This document shows positions 661 to 56,266 of a stretch of DNA of 64,000 bases, one piece after another. Within the stretch, counting starts at the first letter, position 1. Each line of letters begins with the position of its first letter. The DNA comes from Cyanobacteria bacterium P01_A01_bin.123 (lineage in GTDB: Bacteria; Cyanobacteriota; Cyanobacteriia; Phormidesmidales; Phormidesmidaceae). The notes under the pieces were generated by a model. That model was not told the DNA's origin, did not search any database, and saw only the letters and a list, made by a program, of their open reading frames with translations. The stretch is from contig JBCBZT010000009.1 of assembly GCA_039815185.1 (NCBI GenBank), positions 137,244 to 201,243 of the forward strand, given 5' to 3'. The translations under genes and the position numbers were made by a program.

Positions 661-1088
661 GCCGCGTTCCTCATGCTCCTTAATCGTTCAAAATCAAAAA
701 TTCGAGCTTACGTCCCAATTGTTGGGTGCAAACTCAGGTGTTGGGGCTGACATTCTAGGAGAATGCTACTTAGCTTCAATCTCAATGCTGTGGCGTCGAT
801 CAACGCCGAAAACCCTTAGCTCCCATCAGGTTCATCAAGGACGTAACGAACCCAGTTAGCGTGGGCATCTTCAAATTGTAGCTTTTCAAACAAATAATGC
901 GCCATAAGATTTGGAGCAATTCTTTTGAAATCAGGTTAGTTGATTCAAACCTAACCCAGCTGATCTGAATAGTGACGCCAGTGTATTTACTTAGCATAGC
1001 TATTCTACCTAGAAGCCGCCATAGAATCCGCCAAACGGCTTATTTTCCTCTGGATAGCCTTATTTCCCTTACATGGAAAACTGTCTTT

Positions 1089-1129
1089 GCATAGAGAATC
1101 GTGGCGCTCGCCGCAATGATTCTCTATGC
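1089..1129. repeat. Inverted repeat (12-bp perfect arms) upstream of sigA
   Basis: GCATAGAGAATC-N17-GATTCTCTATGC. Confidence 0.6.
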
Positions 1130-1294
1130 TGCAGCATTAGGACGCTCTTAAATCGCCAGTCCCCCTTGGAGGCAAGAACTTTAGCAACTGCTATACCGGC
1201 TTCTCACTAAACAGATACAGACAATGCCCTAAAGGCCTGATGCAGGCTCAGATATGCCTATACAGAGCTTTTTCAAATGGAAGGCGATTGACCT

Positions 1295-1696
1295 TTAGAC
1301 ACAAGACTGTTTTGCCCAAGCGGACTGGACTAGAGTTGTTAAGATGTCGCCGCTCAAAGGCTTGACTAAAAAGCCATCAATTCCTGAGTAGTCTTCTTCA
1401 TAAATCCAACTGGGATTATGGGACTCAGTTAGGGCAACAATAGTCACGCCAGATTTTTGGCCAGAACTTTGGATAGTCCACCTCAGCTTGTGAACCAACG
1501 ACTGAGCTGAATCTTGATGATTTCCGGCCAAAATGACCAGATAAGGCGCTATTTGCCCAGCCCTAGCCACAGCCTGCTCAATAGAATTAGCAACAAATAC
1601 CGAACATCGGAGCCTCTTCAAAACAGACTGAACGATCTGTAAATCGCCACACTGCTGATCTAAAAGAAGAATATATTCTTGTTGGGAAACTGTCAT
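1295..1696 (-). CDS. Stand-alone receiver-like domain (atypical response regulator)
   Basis: REC layout ILLLD / YLVILA / IVALT / GIDGFLVKP; the phosphoacceptor Asp position holds Ala. Confidence 0.8.
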   Translation of the reverse strand: MTVSQQEYILLLDQQCGDLQIVQSVLKRLRCSVFVANSIEQAVARAGQIAPYLVILAGNHQDSAQSLVHKLRWTIQSSGQKSGVTIVALTESHNPSWIYEEDYSGIDGFLVKPLSGDILTTLVQSAWAKQSCV

Positions 1697-2245
1697 AAGT
1701 GGCTAGATGCGTTGGGCATCTCCAAAATTCACCTGAAGTAACGCTCGTACAACTCATGCAAAAACGCTATTGTTCTGAAATTGATTACTCTGAAATTGAG
1801 TAACCAGCTCAGGATTCGCACCCTTCAATAATAGAGGGATTCAAATTAAGACTCCCAATGCTATTTACTTTCTTAAGCTGTTTGACTTGAATTGGGTTTT
1901 GAGTATCAAGAAATATCAATTCACTTTGCATAACGCCCTAATTCAAGTTACGCATCGAAATTGAATTTAAATTAACTTAACCTTCTCAAGATACTTCCTG
2001 GAGATCGCAAAACCTTTGCTGAACATGGCTTTGAAGGAATATAATGATCAATTTCTAAGTGTCAACTCTAGAGAATTGGAAAGCTTTATTAAGATGCCAG
2101 CTTTACAAAGCTATCATTTATTTAATCGATATTAAAAACCAAGCAAAAACTAGCAGCAATGAACTCTAAGACGCTTATTACGTCTAGGACTCTGAACGTT
2201 CTTTGTAGTGAAAACAACTTTATTCAAAGAATAAATGTGTGAACC

Positions 2246-2836
2246 ATGAACATCCATAGTTCTAAGTCCTGTCTTGCTCAAATGCACAAAATAGATCGAT
2301 TCCTTTTAGGATTGCTTGGGTTATTTTTGGCTCTAGGAGTGTGGGCCTGTGATCAATTGGCAGAAGAGTTAACTATCGTTGTGCAAGACTACACGGCGAT
2401 CGCAGACGTAACCTATAGCTGGCAGGTAGAGTATGCCGAGAGTTTTGACATTGCCCGGACGATTCGCCAGGAGACGTTTGCCTCGACTCACCTGACAAAC
2501 CGTAATGGTGTTGCCCCTGAAGGGGCAGTGACAGGCCCAGATGATCAGGGACTTTGGTGGCCTGCTTTACCCCCTCGCCCAACGGTTGACGAACTCGAAG
2601 CCCGGCAAAAAGAGGCTCGAGAAAAGCGAGCTGACCCAACATTGTTAAAACAGGTGAACTATCGCATTGAGTTTGTAACGGATGGGGTAAACCAAACTGC
2701 TGCCACCAAACACATTGTCTACCGTCAAGTCGTAAAAGCTCATGCGGCAGGCCAGGTGCTAATGCTCACGCTTACCCCAGGACAAAATTTTGTGGTTAAT
2801 GCAGAGCCCCACGAGGGTGATGGAGAAACATTTTGA
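2246..2836 (+). CDS. Hypothetical exported protein, probable lipoprotein (start may be 2282)
   Basis: Hydrophobic N-terminal stretch followed by VWAC lipobox-like motif. Confidence 0.7.
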   Translation: MNIHSSKSCLAQMHKIDRFLLGLLGLFLALGVWACDQLAEELTIVVQDYTAIADVTYSWQVEYAESFDIARTIRQETFASTHLTNRNGVAPEGAVTGPDDQGLWWPALPPRPTVDELEARQKEAREKRADPTLLKQVNYRIEFVTDGVNQTAATKHIVYRQVVKAHAAGQVLMLTLTPGQNFVVNAEPHEGDGETF

Positions 2837-2863
2837 GCCGATGGCATCGGCTCAAAATGTTTC
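2825..2863. terminator. Perfect 19-bp inverted repeat over the stop codon; probable terminator hairpin
   Basis: GAAACATTTTGAGCCGATG-G-CATCGGCTCAAAATGTTTC. Confidence 0.65.
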
Positions 2864-2936
2864 AATTCTGTAATATAACCTCTAGTTATAGATGGGTTTG
2901 GGGCACATTAGGACAAGCGTTAATCCAGTCTTAACC

Positions 2937-3416
2937 ATGTCTACTCGGAGCCTGTTTGTTTCGATGCTGCTAGGTGTAGGAGTGTGTCTCACCGCAACCA
3001 CATTGCCAAGTCATGCTCAAGCGGTTGCGGTGAGTGCTGTGCATCAGGCAACGGCAGCGGCATTGGTTGAGCGGGGTAATGATTTTTATCAACGGGGCGA
3101 TGTGGAAACTGCGATCGCTTTCTATACCACTGCGATCGAACGGGATCCCAATTCGGTTTTGGCCTATGTAACCCGGGCTGGAGCCTATGGTGGTACAGGC
3201 GACTATGACGCCGCAATTGCAGACTACAATAGCGCGATCGCAATTGACTCTAATGCTGCCTCTGCCTACGGTGGTCGTGGTTATGCTCGTTATCGCAGCG
3301 GTGACACTGACGCCGGCATCGCCGACCTCTGGGATGCGGCCTTACTGTTTCGCAAGCAGGCCCGTATGGATGCCTATCATGAAACCCTGGGTGTGATTAG
3401 ACGCCTTGACCCATAG
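2937..3416 (+). CDS. Secreted tetratricopeptide-repeat protein
   Basis: Signal peptide ending SHA-Q, TPR consensus (RGNDFYQRGD...AYVTRAGAY...AYGGRGYARY); ATG 2937 preferred to 2892. Confidence 0.85.
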   Translation: MSTRSLFVSMLLGVGVCLTATTLPSHAQAVAVSAVHQATAAALVERGNDFYQRGDVETAIAFYTTAIERDPNSVLAYVTRAGAYGGTGDYDAAIADYNSAIAIDSNAASAYGGRGYARYRSGDTDAGIADLWDAALLFRKQARMDAYHETLGVIRRLDP

Positions 3417-3496
3417 GATTTGGTTTGGATTTGATTTTTAAGCTCCCATTGTATTTTCCTTAAAAAGCTCCTAAGTATTGATGCGCTTAAGCTAGA

Positions 3497-6400
3497 GTGA
3501 GACAGCGCAAAGTGGCCAAATATTGGGGGATTGTGGTGACGCGAAATGCAAGAGTGCTGAGAACTATCTTGAAAATTGGCTTGGGTTGCTTGGTGGGTTT
3601 TGCCTTGGCGATTTCGGGCCTGTTTGCCAATTTGACTCCGGCCCAACTCGTCTCACTGCCGAAAACACCCCAGGCAAAAGCATCCCAGTTTGAAATATCA
3701 CCTGCAACGTCTCCGTCAGTAGCATCCCCAGCCCAGACGCCATCAGCTGAGCTATCCAGAGCTGCTCATACCCTAGTAACTCTGGATGGGGCTGAATCCT
3801 CTAGCTCTGGGACAAAGCAACCCAATCCAGAATCTTCTTCAACTATCAAAGCTGCTGAGGAAAACGCCAACGGTAGTGAGAATAATGGGGGTTTGCGTCC
3901 CTTTGACCAAGTCGTTGGGGGTCTAGAGCCGTTGGCGGGGATGCTGACACTTTATCGCGATCGCGACAAAGGCAAACTCTATCTTGCACTAACGCCTCAG
4001 CAACTGAATCGCAATTTTCTGCTGGTCACGACCCTAGAATCAGGCATTGGCGAAGCAGGGCTGTTTAATGGTTGGCCGATCAGCGATCAGGTGATTCAGT
4101 TCCGCCGGGCTCCGGCTAATCGTCTGCAAGTAGTTGTGCCCAACTTTAACTTTCGAGGCGAGGGGCAACAGCGACAGATTGAAAATAGTTACAGTGACTC
4201 GATACTCTATGGCTTGCCTATTGTCAGCATCAAAGCCGATGATACGGTGCTGATTGACTTCAGCAGCCTACTGCTGAGTAACGACCTGGCTGACTTAACC
4301 GGCAGATTGGGGTGGGCTTTAGGAGGCTACATTCCCGATTCCACCACCTCTTACATGTCTGAGGTTAAAGCGTTTCCCCAGAATCTGGAAGTCGAAGCCA
4401 ACATTGGCTTTAGTGGCCTCTCGGATGGCGGCGTGGGGGGCTTTCCCTTTGGTTTTGGCAGCCTGCCTGATTCTCGGGGATTTAGCATCTCGGTACACTA
4501 CAGCCTATCGGAGTTGCCTACTGACAACGGCTACCGTCCCCGTCTGGCCGATGAACGCATTGGCTACTTTGTCACCGCTTATCAAGAACCTCTGGCTTAC
4601 GAACGCCGAGATCCCTTTGTGCGCTATGTCCAGCGCTGGCACTTAGAACGTCAACCCTCGAATGCTGAACTCGCCCCCCCAAAAGAACCGATTGTGTTTT
4701 GGCTGGAGAATACAGTGCCTGAACGATACCGGGACGCCATTCGCGAAGGGGCACTATGGTGGAATGCTGCCTTTGAGCAAGCGGGGTTTGCAAACGCGAT
4801 TGAAGTGCGGCAGATGCCTGACGATGCTGACTGGGATCCAGCAGATGTGCGCTACAACACGATTCGCTGGTCAAATTCTTATCGGCCTTGGGCAGTCGCT
4901 TTGGGGCCATCGCGAGTAAATCCGCTGACGGGTGAGATCCTAGATGCCGATGTGATTATTGACGCCAATATCATTCGCCAGCTCCGGGGAGAATATCAAA
5001 ACCTAGCCGGTAACGGGTCGGACAATACTTATCTTTACAGCCAACTGTGTGGTCATCGGTTCCAAGCCCATATTGAACGTTGGTTGGCAATGCAGCAGGG
5101 GATGGATTTGGCCGAGGTGATGCAGCAGGGGTTTGAACTACCAGGGTTGTCTTTAGCAGACCATGACGTTACGCACAATACTTGCTTTGGGGTAGAATCT
5201 TCGCGACAGTTAGCCTTTGGCGGTTTGATGTTGTCTACTCTGCGGTTAGACCCGGCCAACCCGACAGCGGTCAACGCTTACATTCAGCAATATCTAAGTA
5301 TGCTCACGGCCCATGAGGTCGGTCATACCTTGGGATTGCGCCACAATTTTCAGGGGAGTTTGCTGCGATCGCCTGACGAACTCAATGACCCCAGTCTCAC
5401 CCAAACTGAGGGCATTGCCAATTCTGTCATGGACTACTTTCCGGCTAACTTAGCACCGCCAGGAGCCCCCCAAGCAGACTATTTTCCCAATCAAGTGGGG
5501 GCCTACGATCGGTTGGCTGTCGAGTATGGCTACACCGATACCGGAGCCATGCATCCCAATCAAGAAGTGCGTACGCTAGAAGCGATCGCCCAACGCATGA
5601 GCATTGAGGGTTTGGCCTATGCAACCGACGAGGACATTTTTAGCTTTTTAGATCCAGAAGCGCAGGCCTTTGATTTAAGCAGCGATCCAATGCAGTTTGC
5701 CCAGTGGCAAATGGACAATGCCCGAGAACACTGGCAGCGGCTAGATGGTGCCTATCTGTTACCGGAGCAAGGCTATGAGGAATTGCGCGATCGCTTTGAA
5801 ACAGTCTATTGGTATTACGCCAACCAGGTGTTTACCCTGTCAGGCTATGTCGGTGGGCAAAACTTCAGCCGCCAACGGGCTGGCGACAGTGCTATTAGTG
5901 GTCGGCTGCCCTTTGAACCCGTGCCCATTGAGCAGCAGCGACAGGCATTAGCGTTGCTTAATACCTATGTGTTTGCCCCCGATGCCTTCCAGTTTTCCCC
6001 AACCTTGATCAACCAACTGGCTCCCGAGCGCTGGTACCACTGGGGCAGTCTTCCGATCATTGCCCCGCTGGAGTACCCAATTTACGATCGCGTTTCTTTT
6101 CTTCAGGGTTTAGCGCTGATTGATGTGCTCTCGGGTGCCCGACTGTCTCGCTTACAGTCCGTTGCCATCGGCGATGCAGCAAGTGAAACGCTGAGCATTC
6201 CCGAACTATTTGACACAGTACAAGGAGATGTTTGGCAAGAACTAGCTGACTCTGACACGGGCAATGTTTCCACCCTGCGTCGGGGATTACAACGCCATTA
6301 CCTCGATATTCTCACAGGGCTGGTGTTGCAAAACCCTAGTCAACCGACTAACTTTTTAGAGCTAGTAATTGCTTTTGAAACCCTCTATGCACCAGAAGAC

Positions 6401-50002: not shown

Positions 50003-50108
50003 TATAGCACTGGCCAGATTGCTTAATGCACCGAGTATCGCCAGGGTGCTTAGTCCACAAGCAATCTGGCTCGCGGTAGCGCACAAAGCTTTGTGGCTAC
50101 CGCCATAG
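50003..50108 (+). repeat. Dispersed element family B, copy 2
   Basis: TATAGCACTGGCCAGATTGCTTAATGCACCGAGTATCGCC...GCAATCTGGCTCGC...GGCTACCGCCATAG. Confidence 0.8.
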
Positions 50109-50110
50109 CT

Positions 50111-50179
50111 CAGAAACCGGGTTCCTGATCAAAGCATCTGGCAAAGCCGTCAGACCCGATCAAAGAAACCCGGTTTCTG
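50111..50179. repeat. Short element with 13-bp terminal inverted repeats
   Basis: CAGAAACCGGGTT ... AACCCGGTTTCTG. Confidence 0.7.
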
Positions 50180-50202
50180 GGAGCGTCGCTTCTGGGAGGA
50201 TT

Positions 50203-50879
50203 TTAAGCGATCGCGACGAAATCGCTATCTCCTAACACCGTTGTCACAGTGTTGAGCACCGCCAGGGTTTCATCCCCAAAGCCAATCAGGGTGTTACCGT
50301 CCAATTGACTGATGTCGAGCTGACCGAAGCTCAACCCGCCCGCCAGACCAATGAAGTCCGTGCCGACTTCAAAGTCCACGATGGTATCAGTGCCTTCGCC
50401 CGCAGCCAGGACGAAGGTGTCGCTCCCCTGACCGCCTGAGAAGTCATCTCCGGTCAGAACATCGTTACCGAGCCCCCCCCAGAGTAAGTCGTCGCCATCA
50501 TCGCCCCAGATGGCATCGTTCCCGGCCTCACCAAAGAGGCGATCGTTGCCGGCTTTCCCGCCGATACGATCGTCTCCGTTGCCGCCGAGAATGATATCGT
50601 TGCCACCTGCAGTACCGCCAGAATTGCGTGCGTTGCGATCGCCCCGCAGCACATCATCACCGTCACCCCCGAGAATCAGGTCATTTCCTAATTCTCCAGC
50701 CGCTCCCGAGACGAATCTCGCTCGATCAAGACCAATGCGCTCAGTAATCGCAACCTCACCTGTGGTTGGGTTGAGCGTGAAGCGTACAAGCTCCGGTTGA
50801 AATTCAGGTAGCTTGAAAATTCGCTCATTATCGCTGTCTCCATTCACATCGCTGGAGCCAGCATCGGGGCCGCGATCGC
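50203..50879 (-). pseudogene. 3' fragment of a secreted phytase-like/RTX calcium-binding protein
   Basis: Frame is open from the HIP1 site: DRGPDAGSSDVNGDSDNERIFKLPEFQPELV..., then GGxGxD RTX nonapeptides and GSDTFVL...DTIVDFEVGTD; no plausible own start. Confidence 0.7.
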
Positions 50880-50895
50880 ACTATGCATAATAACC

Positions 50896-51342
50896 TCAAA
50901 GCATTTCGATTAGATGCTGATAGTAATCGAGAGTAACCGGATCATTGCCCCCTTGATTTATATAATTCTGTCTAATTGTTTCATAATCTGAACGAGCGGC
51001 CTCTATGTCACCAATCAAAAAGTACGCTGTGGCTCTTTCTAGATAGAACTGCTCATTATTAGGATCTGCTTCAATTGCTTGACCGAAACTGTTGATTGCA
51101 TCTTCTATAGCACCATTACTTAAATGCTCATAACCAAAATTTGCATAATCTTCAGCAGTCATTTCAGCTGTTAAACTATCGCGAGGCTTACTCTGTCCAC
51201 ATACATTGCTTAAATCTATAATTTCACCTCCCTCTTGCTCTATATAACAAAGTGGATCTGCAGCGACCGATCCAGCATATGCCAGGAGCATAATCCCAAG
51301 GAGAAGGAACCTTTTTGGTATTTTGCTAATCCTAAACACCAT
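50896..51342 (-). CDS. Exported TPR protein (AT-rich)
   Basis: Signal peptide, CYIEQ...IDLSNVCG, TPR (AINSFGQAIEADP...YLERA); visibly lower GC than flanks. Confidence 0.8.
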   Translation of the reverse strand: MVFRISKIPKRFLLLGIMLLAYAGSVAADPLCYIEQEGGEIIDLSNVCGQSKPRDSLTAEMTAEDYANFGYEHLSNGAIEDAINSFGQAIEADPNNEQFYLERATAYFLIGDIEAARSDYETIRQNYINQGGNDPVTLDYYQHLIEML

Positions 51343-51478
51343 AGCTCAAATTTAGATTAAGCCAATACTCTTAATTTTTGAAGCTTACAGCATTTAAGAA
51401 GTTGACAAAGACAAGATGCGCAAAAGTTTAGCGTAGTCTACAGATATTCACTTTAACGAAACTTTGAGCAAAAAGGGT

Positions 51479-51692
51479 GGTTGTGTTGCAAGAAATTATG
51501 AAGGCAGTAATTACGTTATACTTGTAATCTTTGTTATGCAGGGACTCCGAAGATTTCGTTGATGAAAGAGATCTGTCCTATAACATTCCCTTTTGCAACC
51601 CCATTGCTCTGACCTTTACGGATCATATTCATCACCTCATAGCCTTGGAGCGTATGCCAGGCTGTGTTGAATGAGCTAAAGCTAAGACCAGT
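51479..51692 (-). mobile_element. IS6-family remnant (transposase C-terminus plus one terminal inverted repeat)
   Basis: GLSFSSFNTAWHTLQGYEVMNMIRKGQ...FINEIFGVPA* resembles the IS6 DDE C-terminus; GGTTGTGTTGCAAGA at 51479 resembles the IS6 IR GG(T/C)TCTGTTGCAAA. Confidence 0.82.
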
Positions 51693-51849
51693 GCGATCGC
51701 ACTGGATTGCTAGGGTCGCTGAGATCGATGATTTGCACTTCCGGATCACCGGAGACCACGAATAGCTTCTGGGAAGCCGAGTCGAAGGCGTTGATTTCAG
51801 CACCGATATCGCTGGTAAAGCTACCCACTTTTGTCAGGAAAGCATCCAT
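51682..51849 (-). pseudogene. 5' fragment of a choice-of-anchor-I / alkaline-phosphatase-like secreted protein
   Basis: Manual translation MDAFLTKVGSFTSDIGAEINAFDSASQKLFVVSGDPEVQIIDLSDPSNPV, then HIP1 and a stop; GGAG RBS upstream. Confidence 0.68.
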
Positions 51850-52063
51850 TATTACTTAAACTCCAGAAAAGATAATGTGGGGCAAATAATCTCAAGAGCA
51901 AAATCTGTCGTAAAGAGCTGCCCTCAGCTCTTTGTGTTTAGGGCATAGAGCAGAGCTTGCGGTGCGATGCTCGCTCGGAGCGAAATTTTCGAGGGAAAAG
52001 ACTTTTGAGGTCAAAGATTTTGCTGCGGCTAAGTCTGGGTCGCGCGTCCGTTTTTAGCATTGA

Positions 52064-52092
52064 GGGTTGTGGCAACAACGTCACCACAACCC
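52064..52092. terminator. Hairpin downstream of the nuclease gene
   Basis: GGGTTGTGG-N11-CCACAACCC. Confidence 0.5.
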
Positions 52093-52108
52093 CCAGCCAA
52101 AATCAGAT

Positions 52109-55100
52109 TTAGACCCCTAAGTCATCAACGATCGTGAAGTTCCGGGCAACGGTTCCAAGCAAATCACCATTCAGGTTATTTCTTGAATAAAGGTCAAACT
52201 CGATGGTGTTATCGCCCTGGGGCAGTAGGCCAACGCCTCCCCCTCTGTAGTTATTGCCGTTATTGCCAAACAGTGCGTAGGGTTCGACATTCTCGGTCTG
52301 AGTTACCTGACCATCGTTGAGATCGAGGAACATACTCTCAACCTGGCCAAAGAGGAGGCTGTCATCGGGCACAAATGCTGCAATGGTGACATTTTTACCT
52401 GCAAGTGTGCTGGCTAGGATTTCATCGCCCTCCTCAAGTGGGGTCAGTAATTGATCGGTGTCAGCATTGAAGAAGGCAACATCAATATCCAACGAACCGG
52501 AAATATCGTCGATGATCGTAAAGTTGCGGGTAACTGTGCCAAGCAGATCGCCTCGCAGCCGATTTTGAGCATAAAGATCGAACTCGATGGTGTTATCGCC
52601 CTGGGGCAGTAGGCCAACGCCTCCCCCTCTGTAGTTATTGCGATTATTGCCGAACAGCGCGTAGGGTTCGACATTCTCAGTCTGAGTTACCTGGCCGTCG
52701 TTGAGGTCAAGGAACATGCTCTCAACATTGGCGAAGACGCTATCGTCAGGGACGAACGCAGCAATAGTGACATTGCGACCAAAGAGATCACTCGCTAGGA
52801 TTTCATCGTCTCCCTCAAGTGTCGTAATCACAGTGTCACTGTCTGCATCGTAGATCGCAATCTCAAGGTCGGTAGCGGTGTCAGATGCAAGTTCAAGGCC
52901 AACAATCAAGGGATCGTGATCAGAGTTGCGGAAGGGAGTTGTGCCATCAAAGAGAGCCGGATTGCGACCAAAATCGAGGTTGTAGTCAAAGGCATCGGGC
53001 TCATCTGCATTAATGTGCCATTCGGTGGTTCCAGTGACTTGCGGTAGCAGACTGGAGGAGGCTAATCCATAGTCTAGGGTGCCTTGTTGTCCATCAAAGA
53101 CGAAGGAGTAGGCTGAATCGCCCTCAAACAGTTCTGCCAGGTTGGTATATCCGGCTGCTTCCAGTGTAGTGAGGGGATCTTCCTGAGCATAGGCATTGAG
53201 ATCTCCCAGAATCAGGAAGTCGCTGTCACCACTGCCCGTAGGATCGGTGGCCAACCAATCGGCCAGGGCTTGAGCAGCTTTGGTGCGGGTATCGTTCCAA
53301 AAACCTTGGCCATCTCCCTGATCGACATCTGGGTTAGATAACGGCCCCCCTTCAAGCCCAGAATCACCCTTGGATTTGAAGTGGTTGACGACGGCGGTAA
53401 AGGTTTCCCCATTGGCGTCTTCGAAGGTTTGGGCGATCGCCGGACGGTTCCGTTGCAGCCCTGTGCCGTTGGGGTCGGTAAAGCTGGGGGCATCTAGAAT
53501 GGCGACATCCCCGACAGGGGTTACTGCATTGGTTTTGTAAATCATGCCGACGGTGATGGCATCCGTTCCCACTAAACCTGGGGTGCTAATGAAAGCGTAG
53601 GTAGTGCCAGTTCCAGCAAGGGCTGCATTCAGTTCGGCGACGAGGTTAGCCAGGGCGGCATCGTCGCTGCTATTTTCTAGTTCAACCAGCCCCAGAACAT
53701 CGGCATCCAGTTCAACTAGCGTGGTGACCAGCTTTTGCGTTTGGCGATCAAATTCTGCAGTTGCAGGTTCTACACCAAATTCTGTCAGGTCATCAGCCCC
53801 ACGAGGTTCTAGGCCAGCCTCTGTGAGGGGATTGTCGTTGAAGGAAATGCCATCATCCAGCGTAGTGAAGTAGTTGAGGACGTTAAAGCTGACGACCTTC
53901 AGGTTGCCTCCGACCGGATCTGGGGTTTCTGGACGGGGATTGGTGGCTTGGAAATCGACTGGATCTACGGGCTGAATCCGGTAGTCACCGAAGCCAAAGC
54001 TGAGGACACCCGTGAGGTCTGTTACCGTATCTCCCCCTCGGAGCGGATTGTTGGCACTGAGGGGATTGCCGCCTCGACCATGAATAATCGGGTCGGGGTT
54101 CTGAACAGTCTGGCCATCGTCTAAAACAATGCGCCGTTTCTCGATCGCCTCTTGGTGAGCCGCAAACCCAGCAGCATCAGGCGCATTGAACTGGGTGAAC
54201 TGATCCAGGCGTCCGTCGGTGCCAGGGGCGTTGCTATCGCCATCAGCAGACAGCACCACTTCACCGAAGCGATCCAGATTGAAATACTCGGTGACAAAAA
54301 GTGTTTCAGGAATGGTGATCTGCATTCCCTCATAGGCTTCTAAGTCGTCAACCGTTGTGACTGGGAAGTTAACCGTTGCGGCTGTCGGTAGGGTATCGGT
54401 ACCTTCGACAGAAACGGAGACATTAGTGAGTTCAGTTAAGCCTTCGAACTCAGTGACTGTACCCGTAATCTGAACCACATCACCCACGTTGACGTCTACT
54501 GCCGGGGAGCTGCCATCAAAAATGAAAAGTCCTTCAGAGGTGGTGGCATCAGCGTCCGCATCTACATCTTGCTCTTGGACGAAGAAGCCGTTCAGATCGC
54601 CATCGGTGCCCGCAGCACCATCCTGGAAGTCGCCGACCACAACGGCTTCGATCGTTACCTGTTGACCTTCGATGGGGCTGGATGCGCCATTGCCTTGAAT
54701 CGCCGAAATGGAGGTGATCGCCACACCATCATCGTTTTGGATGGTGCCGTCTGCAGTTGCACCGGTAATGTTTGCATCGCCGGACGCATTAGATAGGGTA
54801 ACGGTGAAGCTTTCATCCAATTCAGCCTCGGTGTCGCCAGTGACATCTATAGTCACCACTTGGCTGGTTTCGTCAGCTGCGAAGTTGACGAAACCAGAGG
54901 GCAGTGCCCCACCAAAGTCATCGGCATCTGCCGCAGTGCTGGATACTGCGAAGTCAACGCTGGTTTCACCCGTGGTATTTCCAGAGCGGTTAACTGTAAA
55001 GGTGAAGGGTGTTGTGCCTGCGTCTCCTTCGGCTTGGTCTGCATCTGTGGGCGCAATGCTGAGATTGGTATTGGTGCCTGATGCTTCAGCGATGACGAAG

Positions 55101-56266
55101 TTGTCAACGCCAAAGTCTTCATCGCCCGCATCCAGACTGACACTCAATTGAAGATCTAGGGTGGAACCTGTGCCAGCGATCGCGGCAGTGAAAGCCTGAG
55201 CCGCATTACCCAAGGTCGCGCCATCGCCAACGCCGTCAAAGTCGGTATCTTCACGGAAGAAACCGTTGAATGGCCCACTATTGCTGGTAAAGTCTGCGCC
55301 AGAGAACCACAGTAGATTTTGGAAACCCCCACCGTCAATCTGATAGCTCAGGCGAATGAAGTCGGCATCATCAATGTCGCCGGGGTCATCAAAGAACTCA
55401 GCAAAGTCACCGCTGAATTCCAGATTGCTCAAACCGCTGATGTCTAAACCAGACCAGGTGACCGTGATCGGTAAAGTTGCCCCTTCACCATCCAAGTCTT
55501 GCCCGGTCAAGAAGCTGCCCTCAAAACCCGTATAAGCTTTGATGCCATTGGGTTGGGGGTCGCCACCAAAATCTCCACCTCCCGCGCCATCAGAAATACC
55601 GAAAAAGTCAAACCCACTACTGACGCCTGCATCTGAGAAGAAAGGTGTACTCGTGGTGAACTGGGTGGCATCATTGAAGGTTTCAGTCAGCACCGCACCG
55701 CTGCTATTGCCGTTATCCACGGTGAATGCATCATTTGGTAGCTGCTGGCGATCGCTGTTGCTGCCTGTCCAGTTACTGGGATCACTGATAGCCGCTAGCA
55801 ATTCTGCCTGTGTGCCAGACGTGATGCCTGTATAGATGGCGTTATCAATTTCGTCTAGGGCAAGGGCTGTTTCACCATTCACCAAGCCTGTCGGTAGGGC
55901 TGATGTGTTAGAACTCGTGGCATCAGCTTGCCACACCCCCGGATTACCTTCGCTATTGAGGGCGTAAATAAAGGTGGGATTAGCATCTTCTCCCTGGTAG
56001 GCCAAAATCTGATCACCGCTGGCAGAGAAGGCAACACTGCTGACAGCAGGATTGATCACAGTACCTGCAGGGATGTTCTCGGTAGCAGTCCAGGTAAAGG
56101 TTCCTTCGTTAGCCCGGAAACCACCTGCGGCAAACCAACCGTTGTCGGTAAATTTAATCTCAGTGCCAGTTTCTAAATCGACGAGGGGAACAAAAGCAAA
56201 TTCATCGGGATTGTCGAAGTTGAAACCGATGATGGCAATATCGCCAGACGTGAGGATTGTAGCCAT
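52109..56266 (-). CDS. ExeM/NucH-family extracellular endonuclease with Calx-beta and duplicated C-terminal domain
   Basis: ISAIQG OB domain, SFNVLNYF, VVNHFKSKG, LGDLNAY, GTLDY, WHINADEP, SDHDP. Confidence 0.92.
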   Translation of the reverse strand: MATILTSGDIAIIGFNFDNPDEFAFVPLVDLETGTEIKFTDNGWFAAGGFRANEGTFTWTATENIPAGTVINPAVSSVAFSASGDQILAYQGEDANPTFIYALNSEGNPGVWQADATSSNTSALPTGLVNGETALALDEIDNAIYTGITSGTQAELLAAISDPSNWTGSNSDRQQLPNDAFTVDNGNSSGAVLTETFNDATQFTTSTPFFSDAGVSSGFDFFGISDGAGGGDFGGDPQPNGIKAYTGFEGSFLTGQDLDGEGATLPITVTWSGLDISGLSNLEFSGDFAEFFDDPGDIDDADFIRLSYQIDGGGFQNLLWFSGADFTSNSGPFNGFFREDTDFDGVGDGATLGNAAQAFTAAIAGTGSTLDLQLSVSLDAGDEDFGVDNFVIAEASGTNTNLSIAPTDADQAEGDAGTTPFTFTVNRSGNTTGETSVDFAVSSTAADADDFGGALPSGFVNFAADETSQVVTIDVTGDTEAELDESFTVTLSNASGDANITGATADGTIQNDDGVAITSISAIQGNGASSPIEGQQVTIEAVVVGDFQDGAAGTDGDLNGFFVQEQDVDADADATTSEGLFIFDGSSPAVDVNVGDVVQITGTVTEFEGLTELTNVSVSVEGTDTLPTAATVNFPVTTVDDLEAYEGMQITIPETLFVTEYFNLDRFGEVVLSADGDSNAPGTDGRLDQFTQFNAPDAAGFAAHQEAIEKRRIVLDDGQTVQNPDPIIHGRGGNPLSANNPLRGGDTVTDLTGVLSFGFGDYRIQPVDPVDFQATNPRPETPDPVGGNLKVVSFNVLNYFTTLDDGISFNDNPLTEAGLEPRGADDLTEFGVEPATAEFDRQTQKLVTTLVELDADVLGLVELENSSDDAALANLVAELNAALAGTGTTYAFISTPGLVGTDAITVGMIYKTNAVTPVGDVAILDAPSFTDPNGTGLQRNRPAIAQTFEDANGETFTAVVNHFKSKGDSGLEGGPLSNPDVDQGDGQGFWNDTRTKAAQALADWLATDPTGSGDSDFLILGDLNAYAQEDPLTTLEAAGYTNLAELFEGDSAYSFVFDGQQGTLDYGLASSSLLPQVTGTTEWHINADEPDAFDYNLDFGRNPALFDGTTPFRNSDHDPLIVGLELASDTATDLEIAIYDADSDTVITTLEGDDEILASDLFGRNVTIAAFVPDDSVFANVESMFLDLNDGQVTQTENVEPYALFGNNRNNYRGGGVGLLPQGDNTIEFDLYAQNRLRGDLLGTVTRNFTIIDDISGSLDIDVAFFNADTDQLLTPLEEGDEILASTLAGKNVTIAAFVPDDSLLFGQVESMFLDLNDGQVTQTENVEPYALFGNNGNNYRGGGVGLLPQGDNTIEFDLYSRNNLNGDLLGTVARNFTIVDDLGV

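Follow-up and report, generated by a model that had tools for sequence, protein, structure and literature searches.

Does a segment of foreign DNA that begins and ends exactly at HIP1 sites record an exchange between such sites, or did unrelated breakpoints happen to fall on a common motif? The question is raised by a broken gene for a secreted-type enzyme in the 64,000-nucleotide window analyzed here (G000:C43:137244-201243), which belongs to a cyanobacterial genome of 8.09 Mb with 50.2% G+C. The function of HIP1 is described as open for three decades (PMC5861425, PMC13756078). By genome count, G000 contains 9126 HIP1 sites, one per 886 bp. Neighboring sites lying ~820 bp apart are therefore average and not remarkable alone, so that the finding depends on the position of the true breakpoints. 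Mapping against contigs of sister strains placed them at 50878 and 51701, which goes beyond chance spacing.

Anatomy of the broken gene

The features of the locus are listed in Table 1. On the plus strand, both junctions read GCGATCGCACT. The initial annotation had placed the HIP1 sites at 51693-51700 and 50872-50879 and the start codon at ATG 51849, and these coordinates and the common junction sequence all hold. Its description of an AT-rich insert with a TPR gene and a cut IS6 end was also borne out. The insert has 38.6% G+C, versus 51% and 57% in the flanks; the TPR ORF matches Pfam TPR_11 (E 8e-8), and the C-terminal end of the IS6 transposase gives a weak match to PF13610 (E 0.023, below the cut-off). 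The gene is now dead. The event itself has no function that we can recognize, and it is of interest for the trace it preserves of HIP1-ended DNA entering chromosomes.

Table 1. Features of the broken gene (window positions) and duplicated segments of G000 that end in HIP1 on both sides (contig positions)
Feature	Position	Strand	Remarks
5' remnant, codons 1-50 of 1706-residue secreted-type enzyme gene, ATG 51849	51701-51849	-	100% identical to P0001 residues 1-50
GGAG ribosome-binding-like site of 5' remnant	51861-51864		
HIP1, 5' junction; center of perfect 18-bp palindrome (51688-51705)	51693-51700		Not in intact allele
Decayed IS6-family (ISAcma1-like) element, 3' end; ~52 last transposase codons, stop 51534-51536	51479-51692	-	
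Right end of decayed IS6 element	51479	-	IS6-bearing contigs of X1 and X3 end there
TPR protein gene, intact, 148 residues, hydrophobic N-terminal stretch	50896-51342	-	Passenger of insert
Start of next donor gene, ATG 50888, M-H-S-A-I-A into HIP1, cut at HIP1	50880-50895	-	Putative donor gene start
HIP1, 3' junction; CGATCGC (minus strand, 7 bases) common to intact allele	50872-50879		First base is the donor's
Middle remnant, residues ~288-337, phytase-like domain start	50729-50878	-	48/49 residues identical to P0001; X5 record 4299-4448
Second lesion, 25 bases replacing ~3610 (residues ~338-1540), in frame, without HIP1	50704-50728	-	X5 record
3' remnant, RTX calcium-binding repeats (PF00353) and C-terminus, last 166 residues	50203-50703	-	164/166 identical to P0001
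Both-end HIP1 duplication	C15:63238-63633 and 65067-65462		396 bp, 96%
Both-end HIP1 duplication	C101:407-652/C124:118732-118981		250 bp, 89%
Both-end HIP1 duplication	C111:14841-14965/C21:3919-4043		125 bp, 90%
Both-end HIP1 duplication	C112:24079-24165/C9:5611-5697		87 bp, 91%

The surroundings have peculiarities of their own. A 105-bp repeat at 50003-50107 has about 198 matches in the genome (167 of at least 90 bases) and very high depth in all four sequencing runs compared below. It resembles a miniature inverted-repeat element, and some copies adjoin HIP1. Upstream of the broken gene lies a 1385-residue secreted-type nuclease/phosphatase gene (52109-56266; Exo_endo_phos, Calx-beta), at whose end a domain of ~125 residues occurs twice, the copies being ~85% identical. 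Run X5 has a 384-base step back at this doubled domain, which may represent a further copy or cross-matching between both copies.

The intact allele and the reality of the replacement

Four of the nine listed public sequencing runs (X1, X3, X5, and X7) were compared at the locus. In X5, which comes from the independent study P2, one 5668-base contig matches 50016-50703, 50729-50878, and 51701-52208, and at the joint from 50878 to 51701 it has 711 other bases where the window has 822. The contigs of X3 (study P1) and X7 (study P3) stop at the same two HIP1-side places as the X5 joint; all three runs match up to 51701 and then stop. Depth over the TPR-gene region (50963-51415) is zero in X3 and X5 and near zero in X7. 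The X5 pieces sum to 5121 bases, arithmetically 1706 codons plus a stop.

A protein search with the 5' remnant gave P0001, which has the same 1706 residues, is 100% identical over the query, and contains choice-of-anchor I, phytase-like, and exo/endo-phosphatase domains and RTX repeats. All five MAG members of its cluster read NPV-ALST and HP-DRGP at the two joints. The spacing from V50 to P287 in P0001 is 1+708+2 = 711 bases, the same as in X5. A more distant homolog of 2327 residues in genome G004 also holds both flanks. As judged from these alignments, the flanks belong to a single gene for an ordinary protein of several domains, with no fusion of different genes. The intact form is the common one, and sister strains carry it.

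Since the 711-base spacing recurs and one protein holds both flanks, resident DNA was replaced, 711 bases out and 822 in. The initial annotation had argued for replacement over mere interruption and suggested a search for an intact homolog with both flanks; P0001 is such a homolog, and the breakpoints map to the HIP1 sites. Displacement of the lost parts to another place in G000 by reciprocal exchange or inversion was considered and rejected, as residues 51-287 and 338-1540 have only distant paralogs there (≤39% identity). A scan of JGI metagenomes for DNA of the intact allele gave 11 loci, all at ≤73% identity.

An assembly or library chimera joined at HIP1 would give a similar picture. The assembly of G000 is of the metagenome type and has a contamination rating of 6%, and X1 is possibly the source of G000 and thus not independent. 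However, a separate unitig build of X1 covers the locus and both joints in a single 2149-base unitig (50078-52226) with 0 differences and a depth of 35.5, compared with 35-41 in the flanks. In addition, a word of 8-11 bases is too short for merging assembly-graph paths, and no intact-allele joint is listed for X1. The unitig without differences at flank depth indicates that the structure is real in that population. The misassembly that the initial annotation had named as a risk is unlikely, and a chimera at HIP1 seems very improbable.

A second lesion without HIP1

The same gene carries another lesion at 50704-50728, where the X5 record jumps from 688 to 4299, that is, ~3610 bases there versus 25 in the window. 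No HIP1 lies at this lesion, so that HIP1 is present at two of the four breakpoints of the gene. A search for the source of the 25-base filler found no match of at least 14 bases elsewhere in G000. The filler keeps the reading frame and has a short hairpin inside. The 3.6-kb loss is a separate, HIP1-free event, which may have come before or after the HIP1-bounded replacement. This lesion, the unique palindrome described below, and the origin of the flanks from one protein are points beyond the initial annotation.

The two joints

The joints differ in what the recipient contributed. At the 3' joint, the intact allele matches up to 50878, with the CGATCG core and one more base of HIP1 (7/8), which amounts to a 7-base microhomology. 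At the 5' joint, the intact allele ends at 51701, the base adjoining HIP1, and no codon choice for V50-D56 yields HIP1 or a 7-of-8 variant (best 6/8). The reciprocal HIP1-to-HIP1 exchange proposed in the initial annotation therefore has to be given up: the recipient had CGATCGC (7/8) at one end, and NPV-ALST cannot encode HIP1 at the other. With such a recipient, the donor is the most likely source of the HIP1 ends.

The 5' joint is a perfect 18-bp palindrome, unique in G000, of which one arm belongs to the recipient and the other to the donor; the two share 5 inverted bases of microhomology. Palindromic extension by at least 5 bases is found at 50 of the 9126 HIP1 sites (0.55%). The palindrome suggests a template switch at this joint. 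Long palindromes centered on HIP1 were rejected as a special class, for non-HIP1 cores behave alike (0.60% versus 0.55%). Genome-wide, perfect palindromes of 26-46 bp without a loop greatly exceed chance expectation in G000, whatever their core (for example, C29:62992-63037, C94:185109-185154, and C9:93914-93953), and 0.2-0.26% of 8-bp palindromes extend by at least 7 bases versus ~0.006% by simple chance. Such long palindromes may have arisen where template switching made a hairpin perfect.

A direct repeat of 11 bases, made up of HIP1 and 3 more bases, lies on both sides of the insert, and the repeated site is absent from the intact allele. Such a repeat is the mark of a single-crossover integration, and the event might have had two steps: a circle excised from a donor by HIP1-HIP1 recombination would have entered through one crossover at one site, and an independent deletion, earlier or later, would have removed the 711 bases. 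HIP1-HIP1 excision and plasmid recombination have been reported (Gupta 1993, Akiyama 1998, and Robinson 1997, as cited in PMC13756078 and PMC4390886), and the same gene suffered another large deletion. Nevertheless, the intact allele lacks the 11-base site that the circle would need. If the deletion came first, one extra base is required that X3, X5, and X7 lack; if the insertion came first, a later deletion must have ended exactly at the edge of HIP1. No intermediate allele was present in the four runs compared. We regard the circle route as unlikely. Under direct capture of the donor piece through short homologies, which we prefer, the 3 further bases that the 3' end of the donor shares with the 5' side of the recipient are left to chance (1 in 64). 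An island integrated by an integrase at an att site was rejected because the 11-base repeat is not in the intact allele and the insert has no integrase-sized ORF.

Origin of the insert

The donor DNA was not found among 173 genomes of the order or in 6 plasmids. The best donor-like matches, both in genomes of the same family, are 80% for the IS6 part and 69% for the TPR part, and a plasmid copy annotated as "IS6-like element ISAcma1 family transposase" matches the IS6 end of the insert at 79%. Among TPR relatives, P0014 is a 91-residue fragment from another sample with 93% identity, and a homolog in genome G012 is 57% identical. In G012, a second ORF starts 7 bases past the TPR stop, the same spacing as that of ATG 50888, and the 3' HIP1 on the donor side looks like part of the first codons of the next donor gene. 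These similarities point to cyanobacterial accessory DNA as the donor. The initial annotation had spoken of unrelated DNA, which is right in that the insert has no relation to the replaced part of the gene and too strong as regards its source, given these same-family matches.

In relatives, similarity to the IS6 part sets in at 51693-51689. Of the related IS6 copies, 22 could be read upstream, and HIP1 is absent from the position of the 5' joint in all of them; 21 have the reading K-R-x-x-x-[P/S]-[G/A]-L, and the other is truncated itself. For the 5' HIP1, the donor must therefore have been mutated or truncated earlier. The HIP1 sites at the two ends are nevertheless likely to be those of the donor, which itself was not recovered. 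The IS6 element is a passenger of the insert. Transposition of an ISAcma1-like element would account for one IS6 end in the insert, but the element is cut and lies inside the insert, and neither junction falls at its end. IS6 insertion or a composite transposon was rejected on the same grounds: the single IS end (51479) is 213 bases inside the 5' joint, and 711 target bases were lost.

HIP1 at breakpoints across the genome

Low-copy duplications in G000 (at least 85% identity and at least 70 bp) were analyzed after removing self-hits, hits that were tandem or self-palindromic, ends closer than 150 bases to a contig end, and stretches under more than two hits. HIP1 common to both copies terminates 12 of the 250 ends, in 8 of the 178 segments. 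The expected number is 1.13 from genome frequency, 1.3-1.5 from local density, and about 1.2 from an empirical co-extension null using all alignments of at least 85%. HIP1 is also the commonest terminal 8-mer of these duplications. A variant filter allowing up to 4 hits per stretch gave 13 HIP1 ends of 373, and at an identity of at least 90% the count was 5 of 128 versus 0.6 expected. HIP1 occupies both ends in 4 of the 118 two-ended segments (Table 1), compared with 0.005-0.008 expected. The C15 pair sits in a HIP1-dense cluster of small genes (16 HIP1 in 6 kb). Past the HIP1 ends, the sequences are 15-38% identical, which is chance level. Since both duplicate copies carry HIP1, the site pre-existed in the source. 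HIP1 abutting duplication ends on one side only is not enriched (9 versus 3-10 in control offsets), which favors pre-existing source sites over newly written scars.

The latter result bears on the idea that repair of the joint created or completed HIP1, a process that would also account in part for the abundance of the motif. The 5' HIP1 is found in neither the intact allele nor the IS6 relatives, and the 3' site has changed from 7/8 to 8/8. One possible codon choice for V50-A51-L52, GTC GCA CTG, would put the 7 bases after "GCGAT" in the recipient, so that a 5-base palindromic insertion would be the whole change, and long loop-free palindromes are in excess in G000. That excess, however, is equal for non-HIP1 cores, the enriched duplications carry HIP1 in both copies and not at one-sided ends, and new HIP1 sites reportedly come about by substitution and not by indels (Robinson 1997, via PMC13756078). 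We consider a newly written HIP1 improbable.

The positive test in G000 rests on small numbers, and even there ~95% of duplication ends are without HIP1, so that the effect concerns a minority (~5%). As G000 is rated 6% contaminated, some of the "duplications" may be strain mixtures. HIP1 is described as preferentially conserved (PMC5861425), and such conservation could draw alignment ends to HIP1. A cruder, unfiltered count over all G000 repeats (at least 90% identity) showed no excess, with 22 HIP1 versus 23-40 expected. G+C change-points in G000 gave no HIP1 peak at their poor resolution, which misplaced the present junction by 76 bases.

A strain comparison was also negative. Between the sister genomes G077 and G060 (~96% identical, 0.49 Mb aligned, 0.42 HIP1 per kb, 2.7 times fewer than in G000), none of 172 breakpoint ends touches HIP1 or CGATCG, while controls gave about 1; events shorter than 30 bases, longer than 30 kb, or touching N runs were excluded. 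In the parts of the G077 and G060 genomes searched for duplications, 0 of 20 and 0 of 110 ends, respectively, are at HIP1. G001, of the same genus as G000, is only 70-77% identical, too distant for breakpoint mapping. A search for close HIP1-rich pairs in genera g17, g3, and g18 found 91% at best, to a fragmented genome, and this pair was not used. HIP1 density across 20-kb pieces of genomes of this family (L057-L076) has an approximately eightfold range, from 6 to 53 sites.

These numbers also set the odds for ordinary illegitimate recombination whose two ends fell on the commonest 8-mer of the genome by chance or generic microhomology, a coincidence then picked by the scan. For one event, both ends at HIP1 are expected by chance in ~1 of 8000 cases. 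Scaling the 27-57 replacements per 0.49 Mb between G077 and G060 to 8 Mb gives, by arithmetic, ~0.06-0.12 both-end cases per genome, too many to neglect when many cyanobacteria are scanned. The locus was chosen post hoc from a very large scan and, with hundreds of strain-level replacements per genome, is by itself not compelling. The negative sister pair speaks for chance as well, as does the title of Robinson 1997, which reports similar excision rates in Escherichia coli and Synechococcus. Chance leaves unexplained, however, the four duplications of G000 with HIP1 at both ends and the palindromic 5' joint with its 0.55% background. We judge chance or generic microhomology to be slightly less probable than the circle route.

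Proposed mechanism

Here, we propose that an 822-base piece of accessory DNA was captured by short-homology (illegitimate) recombination, with its ends likely at HIP1 sites of the donor, a reading to which we give somewhat better than even credence. In the first step, donor DNA, probably entering by natural transformation, would have ended or been processed at two successive HIP1 sites. In the second, one donor end would have annealed through CGATCGC to the near-HIP1 of the recipient. In the third, the other end, without a partner site, may have been joined by fold-back or template switching onto the 5-base complementary word of the recipient, which would have left the perfect 18-base palindrome at the 5' joint.

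The comEC gene of G000 is intact, with an open frame of 772 residues. Ku (PF02735) was found in none of seven genomes including G000, in a search whose control was positive in Bacillus subtilis, and Ku/LigD non-homologous end joining was rejected on this result. The HIP1 ends may have been made by methylation-guided processing, a nuclease, or repeated excision. G000 has three C5-methyltransferase matches, and inspection by eye recognized no CGATCG-cutting nuclease beside them. A C5-methyltransferase-like ORF at C82:190500-197500 lies among phage- or plasmid-like genes, and a 180-residue ORF overlaps it in another frame. The HIP1-free second lesion, the null result for G077/G060, the IS6 relatives without HIP1, and the unrecovered donor count against this mechanism.

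Comparison with known HIP1 recombination

Double illegitimate or homology-facilitated illegitimate recombination is a feature of natural transformation in Acinetobacter and Streptococcus, where foreign DNA replaces resident DNA of similar length via microhomologies of a few bases. The present locus resembles it in combining replacement with microhomology (7 bases long at the 3' joint; 5 bases, inverted, at the 5' joint) and differs in its tie to a genome-wide motif.

Within the HIP1 literature, the closest cases are the smtB deletion flanked by HIP1 in Synechococcus PCC 6301 (Gupta et al. 1993) and HIP1-promoted excision (Robinson et al. 1997; both via PMC13756078 and PMC4390886). As presented there, they share with the locus breakpoints at HIP1, an inactivated gene, and the absence of a locally encoded recombinase. 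In those deletions, however, two resident HIP1 sites are reduced to one, whereas here DNA was gained, two sites are present, and the recipient had one near-site. Site-specific plasmid recombination at HIP1 in Synechococcus PCC 7002 (Akiyama et al. 1998; via PMC4390886 and PMC9239245) likewise connected DNAs without other similarity through HIP1 or the CGATCG core, but it was a laboratory event between plasmids with matching sites, unlike a natural chromosomal replacement with one end lacking a recipient site. In PCC 7002, HIP1 in donor DNA is also reported to raise transformation, even non-homologously placed when methylated (Kamoku and Nielsen, 10.1101/2024.09.10.611283). There as here, HIP1 counts on the donor side, which suggests that it acts in DNA uptake or processing. 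Those constructs had homology arms of 250-1250 bp, whereas the locus shows no arms, and the joints themselves are at HIP1. The same literature mentions an inversion near HIP1 sites (PMC9239245) and the insertion of SDR5 into HIP1.

As in the HIP1-to-HIP1 class of Gupta 1993 and Akiyama 1998, the breakpoints lie in or abut HIP1. That class has HIP1 in both partners at each crossover, which is not the case here. With the recipient HIP1 missing at a crossover, the event stands outside the two-site class, though it works like HIP1-linked illegitimate recombination.

Significance

As far as our search shows, published links between HIP1 and recombination consist of a laboratory-selected deletion, plasmid experiments, one inversion (PMC9239245), and transformation efficiency. 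Our literature search, with incomplete coverage of subscription journals, brought up neither a natural replacement bounded by HIP1 nor a HIP1 excess at breakpoints. HIP1-linked deletion and recombination as such are already published. The locus provides a natural, base-resolved before-and-after pair for HIP1 recombination, and its asymmetry separates models, as the HIP1 ends seem to be those of the donor and not of the recipient.

A wider idea can be offered tentatively, and we think it more doubtful than the capture itself. In HIP1-rich cyanobacteria, HIP1 might be where incoming or displaced DNA is cut or handed over, and the stretch between two HIP1 sites might be a unit of homology-independent capture and duplication that needs no matching site in the recipient. 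Because duplication ends in G000 have HIP1 ten times more often than expected, this idea can be tested by strain comparison and a simple transformation experiment. If it is true, HIP1 would be given a direct role in horizontal transfer, one that can be read from comparisons of strains.
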